A stretch of DNA of 64,000 bases from a virus (taxonomy: Duplodnaviria; Caudoviricetes). Under the pieces are notes generated by a model. It was not told the origin of the DNA. It saw nothing but the letters and a program-made list of their open reading frames with translations, and searched no databases. How positions within the stretch are numbered: position 1 is the first letter of the stretch; the number at the start of each line of letters is the position of its first letter. The stretch spans positions 160,001 through 224,000 of the IMG/VR virus record IMGVR_UViG_3300028048_000040. The stretch is one strand, 5' to 3'. Positions 17,159-52,847 of this stretch are shown here, piece after piece. Position numbers and translations under genes: made by a program.

Positions 17159-17170
17159 AACATTTGGGTA
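17159..17170 (+). promoter_or_regulatory. Late-type promoter AC(A/T)-N6-T(A/G) (representative copy AACA-TTTGGG-TA)
   Basis: Matches the AR9 late consensus AACA-N6-TA/G. Copies before genes on + at 11404, 17159, 22714, 30446, 35703, 46709, 63206 and on - at 17115-17126, 52648-52659, 55370-55381, 56702-56713. The motif is short, so single calls are weak. Confidence 0.6.
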
Positions 17171-22576: not shown

Positions 22577-22705
22577 AATGAAATAGAAGTGGTTACTCCA
22601 CTGCTATTTTTAGCATAATATTGATAATAATACAAATTGATAATTCATTTTCTCTCCTTCTAGAATAATTCTAACCCTGGAGTCTATTGACTCCAGGGTG
22701 GTTTT
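22577..22705 (+). ncRNA. Candidate sRNA with anti-RBS tract
   Basis: No ORF; 5' hairpin; TTCATTTTCTCTCCTTCT; terminator 22674-22699. Confidence 0.4.
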
Positions 22706-24007: not shown

Positions 24008-24085
24008 TGATATTCCCTAGGGTTTTAAAACCCTAGGGAATTAATTTTTATTATGAATAATACTATTATATAATCAAATTATTTA

Positions 24086-36927: not shown

Positions 36928-37935
36928 ATGAAACATTTTAGTTTTCAACTTGTTGATCTTGGACGTATTCTTACTAACATAGATAAAGCAAGATATCTAG
37001 ATACACATTCTGACAGAACACCAGCTGGTGAAGTAGATAATGATGATCCAGAATTTTTGTTAAATAGAATTTCTTCTAATTTTGATATTGGTGCCATACT
37101 TAATGATGGTTGTATGATAGGTTTTTTTTATGGGGTATCTGAAACAATAAAAGATAGATTATTAGGTTATAAAGAAGCTAGAGAGCAAGAAAAAATAAAT
37201 GGAACTAATATATTAGAAGAATTTGACAATTTTGAATTTGGACATGTTTTGGCTGATCAAGGTATACATTTAATAGGAGTAGGAGGACCAAATAGAACTC
37301 CTACTTTATTTACAATACCTTATGAAAATAATTATTTTATATATAAAGGCTTTTCTACGCAATTAGATGATATAAATTCAGAAGATGGCATTTTTGGTGA
37401 AATAAAAACAGCTAAATATGTTGATGAAACTTTAGGTGTTATACAAAAAAGCAATATGTCAGAAGATGACAAAGCGCATGTATTAACGCTAATTAGTTAT
37501 CTATTTTCGTCTTTACAATTAGATACAAGCAAACTTGATTATGCATATACTAGTTGGATAGGAATTGCCGATGTTTTTCTCGATAAAATTGGATATGCAT
37601 ATCCCAATGAACTACAAAATGAAGATCTGATTAAATGCTTAAAACAAGCAAGAGCACTCGAAGGGTACAACACTCCAGCAGGAGAATTCAATTATCCTAA
37701 TTTTACTATTTGGGCACTCCTTGTTTCAGTTGGTGAAGAAGGAGTAGATGATGATTGTTGCTTAGAAAGTATAACTATTGGAGATCATGTAACTTATGAA
37801 ACCGAGGTAAGTTATCCAATAGAAAATGTGCAAGTTGAAATAACTCCTCTTCCTAGAAATAGATGTAAAGTAAATTATACTATTACAGCAAATCCAGGAA
37901 ATAATGGAAAATTAGAATTTAAAGTAACTTATTAA
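36928..37935 (+). CDS. Hypothetical protein in a late operon
   Basis: AAGGAG RBS; terminator 37945-37972. Confidence 0.7.
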   Translation: MKHFSFQLVDLGRILTNIDKARYLDTHSDRTPAGEVDNDDPEFLLNRISSNFDIGAILNDGCMIGFFYGVSETIKDRLLGYKEAREQEKINGTNILEEFDNFEFGHVLADQGIHLIGVGGPNRTPTLFTIPYENNYFIYKGFSTQLDDINSEDGIFGEIKTAKYVDETLGVIQKSNMSEDDKAHVLTLISYLFSSLQLDTSKLDYAYTSWIGIADVFLDKIGYAYPNELQNEDLIKCLKQARALEGYNTPAGEFNYPNFTIWALLVSVGEEGVDDDCCLESITIGDHVTYETEVSYPIENVQVEITPLPRNRCKVNYTITANPGNNGKLEFKVTY

Positions 37936-37939
37936 ACAA

Positions 37940-38211
37940 CAAACTCACCCTAGGGATTTTTCCCTAGGGTGATTGTTATGAAGAAATTCAGGAATCGGGT
38001 TGGACGATAATCAACCCAAAGAAATACTTGTTAAGGGACTCGAACCCCTAATCAAGCAAAGCATCCTTATTTAAAAGTACTATAAGGATTAGATTCTTAT
38101 AAAGAATGTGTTACGGGTCATTCTTATAAGAAGATTTTTGTTTTGTTTTTTCTGAAGCGTTCTGACCACACCGTACCATCTGGTGCCAACAAAGATGGTA
38201 TGGTCTTGGTT
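37940..38211 (-). ncRNA. Candidate ~270-nt multi-hairpin ncRNA with a tRNA T-loop hairpin
   Basis: Promoter CACA-TAGATA-TA (38222-38211), five hairpins, terminal CCCTAGGG hairpin. Confidence 0.55.
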
Positions 38212-38226
38212 ATATCTATGTGCAAG

Positions 38227-38311
38227 AAATAATATATCACTAGGGACCTCCATCCCTAGTGATATATTTATTGTTTTGCCCAAAAACAATACGAGCAGTC
38301 AACTGACTCTT
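38227..38311 (-). ncRNA. Candidate ~85-nt sRNA
   Basis: Promoter AACT-ATATAA-TA (38322-38311), two small hairpins, terminator 38231-38268. Confidence 0.45.
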
Positions 38312-38329
38312 ATTATATAGTTATGACAA

Positions 38330-38436
38330 AAATTACCCACTACAGGTGGCAGCCTGTAGTGGATTGTTCAAGGGGAATACTTAAACAATAAATTTTAAGA
38401 GGAATGTAAAATGAAAAACAAAAAAGCACTCGACCT
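38330..38436 (-). ncRNA. Candidate ~105-nt anti-RBS sRNA
   Basis: Promoter GACA-ATATAG-TA (38447-38436), UUUUUCAUUUUACAUUCCUC tract, terminator 38337-38362. Confidence 0.55.
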
Positions 38437-38540
38437 ACTATATTGTCTATAGCTATTTAAAAATAAACAAACCCTTTAGTAACTTATAATACATTTATAT
38501 ACTATCTATATGGAGTCTATTAAGAAAGAAGAGTGATAGT

Positions 38541-39011
38541 ATGAACATTGACAGACCATCCATTGTATTCAATGGATACTTCAAAGGAACTATTTCAAAA
38601 GAAGCAGAACTACGAACTTATACTTCTCTTACTGATAATGCTGCTTTATCAGTATTGGAAAATGAAGATTCTATTTATTATCATAATAAGAACTTATCTA
38701 AAAAAGAGATAAGATATATGGATAATGTGATTATGTCTAGGTATGTTATAAGAAATTTGAATCCAGATGATAGTATTACTTTTGTTACTGTGAATTGCAG
38801 TAGAACTGGTAAAGAAGAAATAGAGCATCATTATACCTATTCAGTATCTATAATAGTGGTTAAATTTGATAATCCTTCAAAATATAGATATAAACCAGCT
38901 AAGATTAAGAAGATATGTTTAGATTGTATTATGGAAGAATACAAAAAGTATAAGTCGCAAATCAATACTTTAAGAGATAATGGTTTTGATATGTTGAAAA
39001 AGGAGAAATGA
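38541..39011 (+). CDS. Hypothetical early protein
   Basis: Promoter 38496. Confidence 0.7.
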   Translation: MNIDRPSIVFNGYFKGTISKEAELRTYTSLTDNAALSVLENEDSIYYHNKNLSKKEIRYMDNVIMSRYVIRNLNPDDSITFVTVNCSRTGKEEIEHHYTYSVSIIVVKFDNPSKYRYKPAKIKKICLDCIMEEYKKYKSQINTLRDNGFDMLKKEK

Positions 39012-40159
39012 AAATGCAAGAATTTCAAAGTAAAGCTTTAAAAATCAAAGATGATATTTTAGGTACTAATCCTGCTCTTTATGAAGTTATAGAAGAAACT
39101 TATAAAGATATGTTTCATAATACAATGGCTGACTTATGTTGCTGTGTTTGGCATATTAAAGGCTGTGGTATTTGGAGATTTGGTATATATTGTGACGGTA
39201 CTTTCATAGCAGAAATTGAAACTCTTGCCAAGTATTCAGAAGACTTCTCACCAGTGACAAGTTCTTTCTCTGTTCCTATTTCTATTCCTAATATTGAAGA
39301 TGGGTTTGAATACAATAAAGAAGAATATGTCTCTAGTTGCCGTAAGATAATCAATTGGATTAGAGATAATAAAGAAGAGGCTCTTACTTTTGCATATTGG
39401 CCAGAAGCATTCATTCAAAAGAATACTTGGGATATTCCAAGATTTAAGTTTGATTGTAAAATGGATTTAGTAGTTCCTCCAGAAAATTATAAGATTTGGA
39501 ATAGAATAGTATGTTGTATGCCATGGTGGGTATTTGGTAATACTATAGATAAAAAGGCTATCTTCGATAACTTCTATAAGTATTTCTATAAAAATAAAAG
39601 AACTAATCAGCAACTATTAAATAGATTCTATAATATATATAGAAAAGAATTAATATCTACTATTGTAAAATGCAATGTTGATATAGATGCTATGATGACA
39701 AAAGGATATGGATACAAATTCTGCATATATATAGATCCTAATAAAATGACAGGCGGTTTTCCTATTGATTTTAAAGAAATGAGTGTAGAAGAGTTTATCA
39801 ATAGTTTAGATTTTTATAACGACTACTCTATAGAAGAGGATCTTTCATATTTCTGGAATTTATTTCAAAATCATGCTAATGATATAGAAAAACAAATAAC
39901 CGCTGAATCTATATTTGATGGAATAGAACCAGATTTAGATTATAAATATAGAACTTGGGAAAGTATTATAGTCAGACCTACAAATTGGCTATCTAAAGAT
40001 ATCGAATTTAATATAGAAAAGTCTATTCCCTTCTGGTTAGCAGTAGAGATGGAAGAATTTGATTTCCAGTATTATACTTCTGGAGATGGTGAAAAACTAG
40101 GTAAATTGTGCAATTGCATAGATTATAGATTTAATAACAAGAAAAAGGAGAAGATGTAA
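39008..40159 (+). CDS. Hypothetical protein
   Basis: AAGGAG RBS; 383 aa. Confidence 0.75.
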   Translation: MKMQEFQSKALKIKDDILGTNPALYEVIEETYKDMFHNTMADLCCCVWHIKGCGIWRFGIYCDGTFIAEIETLAKYSEDFSPVTSSFSVPISIPNIEDGFEYNKEEYVSSCRKIINWIRDNKEEALTFAYWPEAFIQKNTWDIPRFKFDCKMDLVVPPENYKIWNRIVCCMPWWVFGNTIDKKAIFDNFYKYFYKNKRTNQQLLNRFYNIYRKELISTIVKCNVDIDAMMTKGYGYKFCIYIDPNKMTGGFPIDFKEMSVEEFINSLDFYNDYSIEEDLSYFWNLFQNHANDIEKQITAESIFDGIEPDLDYKYRTWESIIVRPTNWLSKDIEFNIEKSIPFWLAVEMEEFDFQYYTSGDGEKLGKLCNCIDYRFNNKKKEKM

Positions 40160-40160
40160 A

Positions 40161-40817
40161 ATGAAACTGATTGTAGTAGTAGACCTGCAGAATGAATTCC
40201 TTGGGTGGCAACCAAAAACTATCCAGAAAGAACTTCCTGAAAAGGTAGTGAACTATGTTGAGAAACAAATGGAGAATCGTTCTACAAGATTATTATGTAC
40301 TCGTGATACTCATCTTGAAAAGGATTATGATGAACATTTTGAATCTTGGACTTATCCTCTTCATTGTGTTCGTGGTACTTGGGAATGGGAAATTGCTCAA
40401 GAACTTGAATGTTATATGAACAGAATAGGTTATAAGAATTGCTGGGTTATCAATAAGCCTACTTATGGTGATTATAGAGAAATACTGCGTTTAAAAGAAC
40501 TATTTAACTGGGAATTCGATGAAATTGAAGTAGTTGGCCTTACAACAGATATTTGTGTACTGGCTACTATGGTTATGCTCAACTGTCTATTCCCTAAAGC
40601 AGAACTGTCTGTTATTGATGAGCTTACTTATGGTACTTCTGAAGAGAAGAAACAGCATGCTTATCAAATAATTAATTCTATGGGATTCCATATCAAGACA
40701 CTTCAAGGATTTGATTATAATTGTCCTGAAGCATGGGAAGATGAAGCTATTGAGAATGATGTAATCAATAAGTGCTTTGAAATAGCTGATAATCTTAAAG
40801 AGAAGGATGATGAATAA
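40161..40817 (+). CDS. pncA: Nicotinamidase / isochorismatase-family cysteine hydrolase
   Basis: VVDLQNEF, TRDTH, PLHCVRGT, INK, GLTTDICV. Confidence 0.8.
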   Translation: MKLIVVVDLQNEFLGWQPKTIQKELPEKVVNYVEKQMENRSTRLLCTRDTHLEKDYDEHFESWTYPLHCVRGTWEWEIAQELECYMNRIGYKNCWVINKPTYGDYREILRLKELFNWEFDEIEVVGLTTDICVLATMVMLNCLFPKAELSVIDELTYGTSEEKKQHAYQIINSMGFHIKTLQGFDYNCPEAWEDEAIENDVINKCFEIADNLKEKDDE

Positions 40818-43420
40818 TGAGAAAAATAATCATCATGAGGGGCTTGCCTGGTTCTGGTAAGTCCACATGGATTAGACAGCATGACCTAGAGGACTATACT
40901 TTATCTCCTGATAATATTAGAAAGATTGTTGCTAATCCTGTCATGAGAATAGATATCCCATACTTCGCTGTAGATCAGACTAGAGATTTCATTGCATGGG
41001 ATATTCTGTTTGATGTTCTGGAACAGAGAATGCAGAGAGGAAACTTCACTGTTATTGATGCTACAACTCTTACTGCAGACCAATTCAATAGGTATAAAAA
41101 GCTTATTGAAAGATATAAGTATAGAGCATTGGTAGTAGACTTTACCGATATGCCTGTTGAAGAGATCAAGAAACAGAACGCAGAAAGAGCTAATACAGTA
41201 GGTTATGTTCCTGAATGGGCTATTGATAGGCTCTATACCAGATGGGAGAATACTGAAGAGTTTATTAAGTCTAACAGATTTAAGATTATTAAACCTACCG
41301 ACTTCTATGAATTTGATAAATTCATGTCTATGAAACCTCTTCAGTTAGATGAAATGAGCTTCAAGAAAGTAGTATTCATTGGAGATATCCATGGTTGTTG
41401 GTCTGCATTGAATAACTACTTTAAGGATACTACTCCTAAGGATCATCCTGATACATTCTATATATTCTTGGGTGATTATCTGGATAGAGGTCCTGAGAAT
41501 GTAGAGACTTTCAAACACTTATACGAATGGAGGGAATACAATAACGTCTTATTATTGCAAGGTAATCATGAAGATCATTGGAAGAACTTTGTTCATGATA
41601 ATATTCCAACTGATGCTTATGAGAAGATTGATTTCTATAAAGAAACACTTCCTCAGTTAGTAGAAGCTGGTATCACTAAAAAGGATATTGCTAGATTAGC
41701 TGATAGACTTGGTCAGTGTGCATACTTGCAGAATAAGTTTACTCAAATTTTAGCAACCCATGCTGGTATCAATGGTATGGTTAAATCTTATGAAGATGGT
41801 AAGAAAATAGCTACTAGCTTCTATGATTCTTATTTCCTTACTAAAATGAATACTTATCAGATGGTGCATGGTGTTGGTGGATATGGTGATGTAAATAAGA
41901 TTGCTGAACAATGGGAAGAATTCATTAATGTTTCTAAGGGTCAAATCAAAGGTGGAGAATTTAAGTTCTACCAGATCTTTGGTCATAGAAATGATGATGG
42001 TCTTCCTGTTCAGGTTTCTGACCATGTCTTCAATCTAGAGGGTGGAGTATCTATCCTTCTCAATGAAGATGCTAGACTGAGGATAGTAGAGTATGATGTT
42101 GAGAATGATACTATGACTCCTGTGGAGGTCATAAATCCTAAGTGGAATATAGGTTATGAGAATACTCCTAATCCTCATACTGCTCTTATCAAAGATAGAA
42201 TGATTAGAGCTAAGGAACTTATCAATGTGAAGAGATTGCATGATAATGTATGTGCATTCAACTTCTCTAATGATGCTTGGTATTCTAAAGGATGGAATAG
42301 TCTTACTTGTACTGCAAGAGGATTGTTCATAGATGTAGAAAAGAATGAAGTAGTTGCTAGATCTTATGATAAGTTCTTCAATTATAAAGAAAGAAGAGAG
42401 ACAAAGGATCTTAATCAAATGCTTAAACATATCAAGTATCCTGTAAGTGTATATGAAAAGTATAATGGCTTCCTTGGTATTCTTTCTATATATAATGGAG
42501 AATTACTGTTTTGCAGTAAGTCTGAGGATCATTTATCCACTTACAAGAGTAATAGTGATTATGAACCTCCTATTGGCAAGAAGATTGAATATGCTATTAA
42601 GAATAGTCTACGGGCTATTATTCCCAAGAAGAAGCAAGAGGAGTTAAAGCATTGGTTTGATGAACATGAATACTATTCCATGTCTAGAATAGTAAATAAG
42701 CATCTTATTGACCATAGACAACCATCTAACTGCATGGCTCTTCTCTTTAAAGAGAATTTTGAGAAACTTGTTCCTGTAGAAACTCAGGAAAAGATTAAGA
42801 AATTCTTACTAGAGAAGAACTGTTCTATGTTGTTTGAGGTTATTGATCCAGAAAGAGATCCTCATATCGTTATATATGATAAACCTAGAGTAGTATTGCT
42901 TGATATTGTATATAATGATATTGAGAAGCCAGCAGCACTCTTCAGTTATAAGAATCTGCAAAATCTGAATAATGGCGTCTTCCATCTTGATCTCAAAGAA
43001 CAAGTAGAGGTCATTAAAGATGAAGAACATTTTAGAGCATTTGTAGAAGGATTCTATAGTTCTACTCATCTTAACAAAGAAGGATTTGTATGTAAAGATG
43101 CTGAAGGATTCATGCTCAAATTCAAGACAGCAGATTATAAGTTCTGGAAGAGTGTAAGAACTATGCTTGATTCAGTTAATAATAGTGACTATGGAGCTGT
43201 ACCAACATTCAATCATACTTGTCCTTACTTATCTGCTGAATTTGATCCTACTGTGGTTCAATACTATAGCAAAGTATTTGATAATTTACTAGGATTCTTA
43301 TTGGAAAAGTTTGGTCAAGAGAGAAGAGATGAACGTATAATCTTACCTCCTAACTTCTTAATCAAACCAGATGGTAGTAGATACAATGTGATTGATATTC
43401 GCAAAATGGTAGATATGTAA
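40817..43420 (+). CDS. RNA repair enzyme: polynucleotide kinase, metallophosphoesterase and Rnl1-type RNA ligase
   Basis: GLPGSGKST and IDAT; GDIHG, GDYLDRG, GNHE; ARGLF, KFFN, EKYNG, EGFV, KFK. Confidence 0.9.
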   Translation: MRKIIIMRGLPGSGKSTWIRQHDLEDYTLSPDNIRKIVANPVMRIDIPYFAVDQTRDFIAWDILFDVLEQRMQRGNFTVIDATTLTADQFNRYKKLIERYKYRALVVDFTDMPVEEIKKQNAERANTVGYVPEWAIDRLYTRWENTEEFIKSNRFKIIKPTDFYEFDKFMSMKPLQLDEMSFKKVVFIGDIHGCWSALNNYFKDTTPKDHPDTFYIFLGDYLDRGPENVETFKHLYEWREYNNVLLLQGNHEDHWKNFVHDNIPTDAYEKIDFYKETLPQLVEAGITKKDIARLADRLGQCAYLQNKFTQILATHAGINGMVKSYEDGKKIATSFYDSYFLTKMNTYQMVHGVGGYGDVNKIAEQWEEFINVSKGQIKGGEFKFYQIFGHRNDDGLPVQVSDHVFNLEGGVSILLNEDARLRIVEYDVENDTMTPVEVINPKWNIGYENTPNPHTALIKDRMIRAKELINVKRLHDNVCAFNFSNDAWYSKGWNSLTCTARGLFIDVEKNEVVARSYDKFFNYKERRETKDLNQMLKHIKYPVSVYEKYNGFLGILSIYNGELLFCSKSEDHLSTYKSNSDYEPPIGKKIEYAIKNSLRAIIPKKKQEELKHWFDEHEYYSMSRIVNKHLIDHRQPSNCMALLFKENFEKLVPVETQEKIKKFLLEKNCSMLFEVIDPERDPHIVIYDKPRVVLLDIVYNDIEKPAALFSYKNLQNLNNGVFHLDLKEQVEVIKDEEHFRAFVEGFYSSTHLNKEGFVCKDAEGFMLKFKTADYKFWKSVRTMLDSVNNSDYGAVPTFNHTCPYLSAEFDPTVVQYYSKVFDNLLGFLLEKFGQERRDERIILPPNFLIKPDGSRYNVIDIRKMVDM

Positions 43421-50145: not shown

Positions 50146-50372
50146 GGTTATCACCTCCTTTAGTTTCAGAGGTTATTCTTATCTATTCTTCATGACTATA
50201 GTATATATCTGAAACTAAAGACTCCCTAGGGTATACACCCTAGGGAGTTTAATTTTATGACTTAGAGATATTATAACATTATATTAGACTAAGAATATTA
50301 CAAATCATATCAATATTCCCTAGGGTATTATACCCTAGGGGAAATTATTATTATTATTAGGGGGAAGAAAAT

Positions 50373-50873
50373 ATGACAGCACAAGTAATAACTGCTCCAG
50401 AAGATGAGTTGAATAGGTATATACCTGTATTTCTTGCTGGAGGAATAACCAATTGTAAAGATTGGCAATCAGAAGTGATAGAAGAGCTAATAGATGAAAA
50501 AATAACAATCTATAATCCTAGACGAAAGTATTTTGATATAACAGATAAAAATATATCTTATGAACAAATTGAATGGGAATTTAGACAACTAGAATATATG
50601 GATATCTTTAGTATATATTTTTGTGGTGGTGATTCAATTCAGCCAATCTGTATGTATGAATTAGGAAGAAACATTATCCGTATGCAGAATAGATTTCCTA
50701 GTGATTGGGAAAAAAGAATAGTTATCAGTTGTGAGGTTGATTATATAAGAAAAGAAGATGTAATCATTCAGACAGAACTAGCTACACATAATAAAGTGTT
50801 TGTAGAACATAATGCTACTCCTAAACTACATGCTCAGTATATTAAGAGAGCTATTAGAAATATAAAAAGATAA
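50373..50873 (+). CDS. Nucleoside 2-deoxyribosyltransferase-like protein / dNMP N-glycosidase
   Basis: VFLAGGI...WQ, IYNPRR, QIEWE, PICMYELG. Confidence 0.8.
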   Translation: MTAQVITAPEDELNRYIPVFLAGGITNCKDWQSEVIEELIDEKITIYNPRRKYFDITDKNISYEQIEWEFRQLEYMDIFSIYFCGGDSIQPICMYELGRNIIRMQNRFPSDWEKRIVISCEVDYIRKEDVIIQTELATHNKVFVEHNATPKLHAQYIKRAIRNIKR

Positions 50874-50882
50874 ACAAAGGGA

Positions 50883-50972
50883 TTCCCCTAGAGCTTAATA
50901 GCTCTAGGGGCATGCAAAATGAAGTATTTAGTTATTGATCGTGTATACCATAGGCAGAGCGCATAAACGATC
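50883..50972 (-). ncRNA. Candidate ~90-nt sRNA
   Basis: Promoter TACA-ATATAG-TG (50983-50972), 5' hairpin GATCGT...ACGATC, UUCAUUUUGCAU, terminator 50885-50910. Confidence 0.5.
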
Positions 50973-50994
50973 ACTATATTGTACATAGAACTAT

Positions 50995-51136
50995 AAAAAA
51001 TAACACCCAGAGTTTGTAAGAACTGAATCATCCAACTATTCAATTTCTCTGAGTGTTATTGTAGGGGTATTGACTTAGGTTGAATCACTTTCACTTATCT
51101 AGTGATAATTTACTTATGATTCTATACCCCTATATC
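50995..51136 (-). ncRNA. Candidate ~140-nt two-hairpin early ncRNA
   Basis: Early promoter 51152-51143; stems 51124-51132/51062-51070 and 51047-51060/50999-51012; U tail. Confidence 0.55.
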
Positions 51137-51169
51137 ATATATATAATATATAAATGAAAAACTAGACTA

Positions 51170-51279
51170 AAACTACCCCTAGATCCATATAGATCTAGGG
51201 GATAGTAAAAAGAAAGGAAGAAATAAAATGAATGTAATAATGTGGAGAAATTATGAGAAATTTTAGAAAGGAATTGATT
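51170..51279 (-). ncRNA. Candidate ~110-nt sRNA with three anti-RBS tracts
   Basis: Promoter TACT-TATATT-TA (51290-51279); terminator 51176-51201. Confidence 0.55.
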
Positions 51280-51353
51280 AAATATAAGTAGACTCTATTA
51301 TAACTTTTGATTGACTTTATGTAAATAGTTATATATTATAATGATGAAAGGAG

Positions 51354-52684: not shown

Positions 52685-52847
52685 ACATCTAAATAAGACA
52701 CAGTGTGGATGCGAATCGAGAACAATATAGGGTTGCTGTTAAGAAGAATCATAATAACAAGTTCTTAGTTTGCTATTCATTTGTGTCACCTACTTACATT
52801 ACAAATTTAAATATAATTCCCTTAGGTGAAATATCCTAAGGGAGTTT
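52685..52847 (+). ncRNA. Candidate long-hairpin sRNA
   Basis: Promoter AACA-TTTTAT-TA 52674; irregular stem GACACA...TGTGTC; terminator 52817-52842. Confidence 0.55.

Follow-up and report, generated by a model that had tools for sequence, protein, structure and literature searches.

The DNA analyzed here (hereafter, the window) is a 64,000-nucleotide stretch, bases 160001-224000 of a single IMG/VR virus record of 342,328 bp with overlapping ends. The genome has a G+C content of ~30% and a sole tRNA, Arg-TCT, and contains homologues of the split RNA polymerase (RNAP) subunits beta and beta' at four loci, because of which we assign this uncultured virus to the phiKZ/AR9-like jumbo phages. Within the window, an ORF-free gap of 605 nt (37936-38540) separates two plus-strand genes, 36928-37935 and 38541-39011; once one spurious ORF is discounted, this gap is among the four largest in the genome. 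When the DNA of this region was compared to GenBank phages, AR9 included, no match was found.

As a first-pass annotation of the letters alone had claimed, the minus strand of the gap carries three late-type promoter motifs, namely ACA-N6-TAG at 38446-38436 (P1), ACT-N6-TAA at 38321-38311 (P2) and ACA-N6-TAA at 38221-38211 (P3), with predicted starts at 38436, 38311 and 38211, respectively. Each motif heads a short structured sequence that ends in a strong hairpin of 12-17 pairs: T1 at 38364-38335, T2 (17 pairs, with GGAGG in the minus-strand loop) at 38268-38231, and T3 (12 pairs) at 37972-37945. The second and third motifs stand 13 and 9 nt past the preceding hairpin, in agreement with the 9-15 nt given originally. 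The three resulting units, which would yield RNA1 (~110 nt, 38436-38326), RNA2 (~90 nt, 38311-38222) and RNA3 (~270 nt, 38211-37938), are oriented antisense to both neighbouring genes, without overlapping them. An early-type promoter of the downstream gene 38541-39011 (AGTAAC, spacer, TATACTAT; 38478-38505, plus strand) is divergent from P1 and lies outside the array.

Early-type promoters of this kind, i.e., an AGTAAA-like element, a spacer, and TATACTAT or TATATTAT-N6-G, number ~45 in the genome and are located in the sense orientation ahead of genes. They match the early consensus reported for AR9, AAATATATATTAT-N6-G, given also as TATATTAT-N6-G (Lavysh et al. 2017, PMC5312081). In the same source, the late promoter of the AR9 non-virion RNAP is AACA-N6-T-A/G, and the ACA-N6-TAA motif that we found by a de novo look at upstream regions is its counterpart in the present phage, with the difference from the published AR9 consensus that TAA is preferred past the spacer. 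P1 and P3 have the form ACA-N6-TA-R with a base other than A before ACA, and P2 has AACT where AR9 has AACA.

Relatives were reached via the downstream RNA-repair gene described below and via an RNAP subunit, whereas the proteins of the two genes closest to the gap, each used as a query against IMG/VR, produced none. The comparison includes a sister phage (L005; 332,775 bp) and a third variant (L032) that covers 38250-38991. The metagenome contig L034 is identical to L005; a metagenome pattern scan, which led to L032, returned 14 stretches, two of them homologous, one of which is identical to L005. There are only two independent relatives, both close, with few substitutions and no statistical power for covariation.

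The immediate surroundings are variable. A 383-aa gene without family match (39008-40159) is missing from both relatives, in which the sequence skips from ~38920-38990 to ~40140, so that an indel hot spot adjoins the array. It is followed by an isochorismatase-family gene (40161-40817), which is ahead of an 867-aa fusion of polynucleotide kinase, metallophosphatase and T4 Rnl1-type RNA ligase (40817-43420), i.e., an RNA-repair enzyme with 94% identity in the sister phage.

Identity of the gap in the relatives is 76-92%, compared to 62-71% for the flanking genes. Broken down against L005, it is about 90-92% in the promoter-plus-terminator segments, 83-84% in the bodies of RNA1 and RNA2, 76% in the RNA3 core and 60% in the 5' part of RNA3, versus 62% and 71% in the two flanking coding sequences. 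All P1-P3 motifs and all T1-T3 stems are invariant in L005, and likewise in L032 where covered (L032 stops in the T2 loop and includes only the first T2 arm). At P3, conservation with L005 runs through the motif, and the sequence diverges immediately past it. In a search that included three more distant relatives, a covariance model of the RNA3 core matched the window and the sister phage only; a further match in the phage's own genome (63930-64054, 21.7 bits) and those in the distant relatives were weak and unconvincing. Because the genes on either side of the gap are missing from these distant relatives, synteny was of no help there. The array, which lies in a variable region of the genome, is therefore confined to a narrow lineage.

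The early claim that the array contains no protein-coding sequence agrees with these comparisons, because candidate ORFs of both strands are disrupted by indels in the relatives. On the minus strand, a 66-codon ORF (38089-38289) lacks a ribosome site and is broken in L005 by 2-nt and 20-nt indels; a short plus-strand ORF is considered below, together with RNA1.

The same annotation had cautioned that the promoter motif is short and frequent by chance in AT-rich DNA. This caveat is well founded for the loose form that we scored, ACW-N6-TAR, of which ~1.2 occurrences per strand are expected in 605 nt and which appears ~2 times per kb per strand in shuffled intergenic DNA. The stricter form, ACA-N6-TAA, occurs genome-wide 32 times in the sense and 8 times in the antisense orientation, a four-fold difference, with 12.4 +/- 3.3 occurrences in shuffles, whereas ACT-N6-TAA is not enriched genome-wide (21 sense, 16 antisense, 16.2 in shuffles). 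Therefore, P1 and P3 belong to the supported class, and P2 is a candidate promoter by virtue of its position and conservation. The ACA-N6-TAA motif sits 20-70 nt before start codons, often ~10 nt past the hairpin of the prior gene; among other places, it is found ahead of a virion structural gene at 17160 and ahead of the sole tRNA. According to the AR9 transcription study, the tRNA of that phage is a late gene (PMC5312081).

The original argument leaned on positional regularity, and here the genome-wide counts are favorable: a motif within 22 nt past a strong intergenic hairpin was found in 35 of 130 cases (27%) on the sense strand versus 7 of 130 (5%) on the antisense strand, so that a layout characteristic of the sense strand occurs twice on the minus strand of the gap. 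Two of the seven antisense cases fall in this gap, and the only antisense case in the genome with ACA is P3; thus, the gap behaves like a small minus-strand transcription island. A PWM ranked P1 162nd and P2 147th among 684,600 positions; this matrix is weak, as a site at 38078 inside RNA3, probably a chance match, outscores P1-P3.

P1 and the motif 16 nt upstream of the sole tRNA have a common extended form, ACAATATA-N-T-R. Its genome count is at the chance level, with 9 sites versus 9.05 in simulations, and only the intergenic placement is notable: six or seven sites are in intergenic DNA, which makes up 8.5% of the genome. Besides the one at the tRNA locus (genome 65360-65460), most sites precede short RNAs closing with a hairpin; such short hairpin-ended units follow the extended form at genome positions 23239 and 323959, and at 313446 it heads a structured leader. 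By itself, the frequency of the 8-mer ACAATATA, variants included, showed no clear signal. A separate observation is that the upstream element of early promoters (AAAC-W, six bases, TAG; e.g., window 3201, 60683 and 57973) fits the loose late motif ACW-N6-TAR. It follows that loose-motif counts are inflated and that some promoters may be dual early/late, for which the continuously expressed genes described in AR9 offer a parallel.

All three hairpins were called on the minus strand as intrinsic terminators, of which a G+C-rich hairpin with a U-rich tail behind it is the hallmark, and the region 37000-39500 contains seven terminator-like sites versus 0.9 +/- 0.9 in shuffles. T3 may also be the end of the upstream plus-strand gene 36928-37935. 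There are ~150 strong intergenic hairpins genome-wide (e.g., window 37945-37972, 24012-24041, 50219-50250 and 50316-50342), many of which have arms based on CCCTAGGG, a self-complementary core, or on other palindromes with CTAG; in intergenic DNA, 7-mers of the CCCTAGGG core are ~10-fold enriched, and the core may represent either a terminator type used at many sites or a binding site for a protein.

Other repeated intergenic elements were noticed elsewhere in the genome. At 119530-121843, ~38-40 kb before the start of the window, a perfect palindrome of 36-42 nt occurs in three copies, one upstream of each of three successive minus-strand genes, each paired with a second repeated hairpin of 22-24 nt that occurs again at genome position 133376. 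Runs of 9-13 G followed by TAATA are present at three intergenic sites (genome 231087, 276867 and the record start), and (TA)n runs of ~20-26 bases stand just before genes at four (genome 231767, 250289, 275321 and 277201). Both kinds of runs are possible phase-variable or slippage-prone elements.

Taken together, the motif statistics, the layout, conservation above that of the coding flanks, the strand-specific structure described next and the absence of conserved ORFs lead us to interpret the gap, with moderate confidence, as three independent, putative late small-RNA genes on the minus strand. The main rival, which we regard as considerably less probable, is that the gap is an insulator or 3'-UTR, i.e., a stack of bidirectional terminators with regulatory DNA between the upstream operon and the early-promoter gene at 38541; any functional RNA would then be a plus-strand read-through product, and the minus-strand motifs would be chance occurrences. 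The three hairpins are indeed near-perfect palindromes that also score as plus-strand terminators, some 150 hairpins of this kind lie behind genes throughout the genome, and the brevity of the motif in AT-rich DNA fits as well. However, the tail of T1 is U-rich on the minus side only, and this is so in each of the three variants. The same asymmetry is seen for T3 in L005, where one loop base has changed. Nor does such a stack account for inter-hairpin segments that are better conserved than the coding flanks, or for motifs that are invariant and placed at the spacing typical of real sense-strand promoters.

Structure bears on the same choice. The third unit, taken as 283 nt, folds with z-scores of -6.7 on the minus and -7.3 on the plus strand, and the whole unit is slightly more stable on the plus strand (-95.5 versus -88.3 kcal/mol), as the plus-strand explanation would have it; this edge is due to the non-conserved 5' hairpin. 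Given the similar z-scores on both strands, the raw fold cannot decide the strand, and the substitutions do. For the conserved RNA3 core, RNAalifold gave -27.75 kcal/mol on the minus versus -23.4 kcal/mol on the plus strand, with three compensatory pairs in the minus-strand fold and four in the plus-strand fold. Hand inspection of the outer stem of hairpin H4 against L005 revealed two further double changes, with the T-arm of this hairpin unchanged. When 17 hairpin-by-ortholog folds of the seven non-terminator hairpins were summed, the minus strand reached -132.2 kcal/mol versus -107.6 kcal/mol for the plus strand. The preference for the minus strand holds in most of the 17 folds; a clear preference for the plus strand is seen only for the second hairpin of RNA2. 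The minus-strand advantage arises because several substitutions within helices result in G-U pairs on the minus strand and in A-C mismatches on the plus strand, which argues against read-through from the plus strand. The covariation in relatives suggested as a check by the first-pass annotation was thus seen in part: compensatory and G-U changes kept helices, whereas some substitutions break pairs, e.g., in distal H2. As these structural comparisons cover two or three sequences only, none of them carries formal statistical weight.

The most unusual element of the array is the RNA with a tRNA T-arm. RNA3 is predicted to begin with a variable 5' hairpin and an A-rich linker, which are followed by four conserved hairpins (H2, 38132-38094; H3, 38089-38063; H4, 38056-38027; H5, 38019-37995) and T3. 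H4 is a canonical tRNA T-arm, in which three invariant G-C pairs close a 7-nt T-loop, stacked on an acceptor-like stem for a total of 10-13 bp; the 5' strand of the helix adjoins the T-stem without a gap, and there is no conserved CCA or discriminator. Apart from H4 and the real tRNA, intergenic DNA of the genome contains no T-arm match. In known systems, a T-arm on an acceptor-like stem is the feature recognised by RNase P and by CCA-adding and T-loop-modifying enzymes. In this respect, H4 resembles the T4 stable RNAs C and D, the Y RNAs of the bacterial YrlA type and the tRNA-like domain of tmRNA, which have a T-arm with a coaxial acceptor-like stem; RNA3 differs from these tRNA-like modules in lacking a cloverleaf and the long Ro-binding stem.

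Several identities for RNA3 were considered and rejected. It is not a tRNA, as there is no cloverleaf, ARAGORN found no tRNA in the window, and Rfam gave no tRNA match even at E <= 10; nor is it a tmRNA or a Y RNA/YrlA, whose Rfam models gave nothing at the gathering threshold or even at E <= 10, and ARAGORN found no tmRNA. Over the entire array, no Rfam family reached the gathering threshold, and the matches at E <= 10 were terminator look-alikes only. A lysine anticodon-loop mimic in the H3 loop was discarded because the loop of the relative differs. The combined T-loop and H5-loop pattern retrieved only true tRNAs from IMG/VR, and sequences complementary to the RNA3 loops had no matches other than to themselves or at the level of chance.

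A canonical T-arm without a cloverleaf could also be what is left of a decayed tRNA. Under this explanation, which we rate as rather improbable and below the terminator stack, the gap would hold remnants of lost genes, and its apparent conservation would reflect recent divergence. The location in a variable region, where the neighbouring 383-aa gene and the segment 50247-51155 are missing from a relative, is compatible with such decay, as is the absence of the flanking genes from the more distant relatives. However, over the same divergence the flanks fell to 62-71% identity while the gap kept 76-92%, and compensatory changes that keep helices are not a property of neutral decay.

Returning to the small-RNA genes, the predicted fold of RNA1 includes a variable 5' end, a 30-nt single-stranded pyrimidine stretch, an internal hairpin of 9-10 bp with a C-rich loop (38389-38363) and T1. 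The single-stranded stretch is invariant in the three sequences. The internal hairpin has a U-G pair that is valid on the minus strand only, as well as one compensatory change. Pyrimidine motifs of the CCUC and UCCC types, invariant among the relatives, are present both in the single strand and in the loop, and a part of the stretch (38413-38397) mirrors a ribosome site, spacer and AUG; the stretch is therefore a conserved, unpaired seed complementary to mRNA start regions. Comparable RNAs are the anti-Shine-Dalgarno sRNAs of Firmicutes with C-rich loops (RsaE/RoxS type) and the c4 antisense RNA of phages P1/P7. The likeness consists in the exposed pyrimidine motifs in single strand and loop, and comes without homology and without an Rfam match.

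The best predicted duplex of RNA1 is with gene 28044, where it spans the start codon and the ribosome site (-34.5 kcal/mol, compared to a shuffled best of -29.0 +/- 1.7). The complement of RNA1 is a generic ribosome site, and many start regions match it within 4-5 mismatches. Among the first genes behind promoters, the median duplex energy was -14.3 kcal/mol for early versus -12.5 kcal/mol for late genes, a marginal difference (p = 0.03). Given the many near-equal matches and this marginal p value, blocking of translation by RNA1 through anti-ribosome-site pairing is plausible, if weakly supported. The seed is invariant, so covariation of seed and target cannot be read, and for the complement of the variable 5' end there were no matches apart from self matches and those expected by chance.

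The mirrored feature works equally well as a ribosome site on the plus strand, and the least credible explanation is that the conservation of the first unit reflects this site with a tiny coding or regulatory ORF (38411-38452): the ribosome site is good and properly spaced from the ATG, and codons one to five do not differ among the three sequences, but the ORF has 13 codons here, 22 in L005 and 16 in L032, where a 1-nt insertion shifts the frame past codon 7 and leaves the DNA beyond (P1 on the other strand) identical, no plus-strand promoter motif of either class is found from T3 to the ORF, which lies behind three hairpins, and analogous micro-ORFs at 51200-51280 are frameshifted in the relative, so that, with frame and length unstable across three sequences, we rejected this ORF as a gene.

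RNA2 is predicted to fold into three hairpins, two small ones and the long T2, with hardly any single strand. Its 5' hairpin is kept in the three variants by G-U/U-G pairs that are valid on the minus strand only; in L005, this hairpin has -5.9 kcal/mol on the minus versus -2.4 kcal/mol on the plus strand.

The first-pass annotation had extended the same architecture to other sites. The second triple cassette that it placed at 50883-51290 corresponds to another ORF-free array on the minus strand (window 50874-51353), and here the extension is justified for one unit. The unit 51289-51170 has a late motif, and the block that it has in common with L005 starts at this motif and ends past the terminator tail, with unrelated flanks on both sides; these boundaries are what a self-contained promoter-RNA-terminator gene would show. 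The middle unit differs from the proposal in that its apparent promoter motif is of the early type (TATATTAT-N6-G, near 51150-51135); its end is marked by a long-range hairpin and a U-run near 51000. The third unit starts at ACA-N6-TG (50982) and ends at a hairpin at 50913-50882. The segment 50247-51155, including the gene 50373-50873, is missing from the sister phage. The single cassettes listed elsewhere fit less well: at 52685 the motif is on the plus strand, and at 22577 and 57621 the stricter motif is not matched. Near 22577, between minus-strand hairpins at 22699-22674 and 22609-22581, there is a good ribosome site with a 12-codon hydrophobic ORF and no strict late motif. The notion of a modular sRNA repertoire driven by the phage RNAP agrees with the AR9-like motif, the split RNAP subunits and the three conserved, structured, ORF-less units of the gap; as one repertoire across all the listed sites it is doubtful, given the early-type motif in one unit of the second array and the two single sites that depart from the stricter motif.

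Transcripts of comparable kinds have been described in cultured giant phages. AR9 and the present phage are alike in the type of their RNAP genes and in their two promoter classes, TATATTAT-N6-G (early) and ACA-N6-T-R (late), and late promoters of AR9 also drive non-mRNA and antisense transcripts, e.g., from an abundant start at 75478 (PMC5312081). The late non-mRNA transcripts described in that account are antisense only and overlap genes, whereas the units reported here are stand-alone, terminator-bounded, ORF-less and arranged in tandem in an intergenic gap. In 201phi2-1, intergenic sRNAs were mapped by ONT-cappable-seq, one of them is conserved across related phages, and related sRNAs are found in phiKZ (Microb Biotechnol 2024, PMC11512511). 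These sRNAs, too, are short units, each with a start and a terminator of its own, in a giant phage that uses its own RNAPs; they differ in being experimentally shown and mostly 5' UTR-derived, whereas the units considered here are predicted from sequence. Furthermore, 201phi2-1 and phiKZ have Pseudomonas hosts and other promoter motifs, and the available text on them (PMC11512511) describes no tandem array or tRNA-like element.

We infer the transcription, its timing and all functions of RNA1-RNA3 from the features described above. The phage's own putative non-virion multisubunit RNAP would start late in infection at ACA/ACT-N6-TA-R, i.e., at ~38436, 38311 and 38211, and would stop at the next hairpin, releasing RNAs of ~110, 90 and 270 nt. 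Because its pyrimidine stretch and C-rich loop mirror ribosome sites, RNA1 probably pairs with translation start regions of phage mRNAs. The T-arm minihelix displayed by the multi-hairpin RNA3 suggests recognition by tRNA-handling enzymes. A more speculative possibility, to which we give little credence, is that the three RNAs form one late module. RNA1 would block early phage or host ribosome sites; RNA2, with GGAGG in its terminator loop, would buffer RNA1 or the ribosome; and RNA3 would engage tRNA-handling or RNA-repair enzymes, with the kinase-phosphatase-ligase fusion 2.3 kb away as a candidate partner, or, alternatively, would act as a decoy against host tRNA-cleaving defences. If this were true, the phage would produce a tRNA mimic that is no tRNA.

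To our knowledge, only a few small RNAs are known in giant phages with their own RNAPs, and almost none of these has an assigned function. The value of the present case is limited by its narrow distribution, which comprises two close relatives. If the interpretation of the gap as three late small-RNA genes is correct, the array provides concrete candidates for the shut-off of early genes or for the handling of tRNA-directed host defences. Moreover, given the simple grammar of a promoter and a terminator, such genes could be systematically annotated in uncultured jumbo phages.
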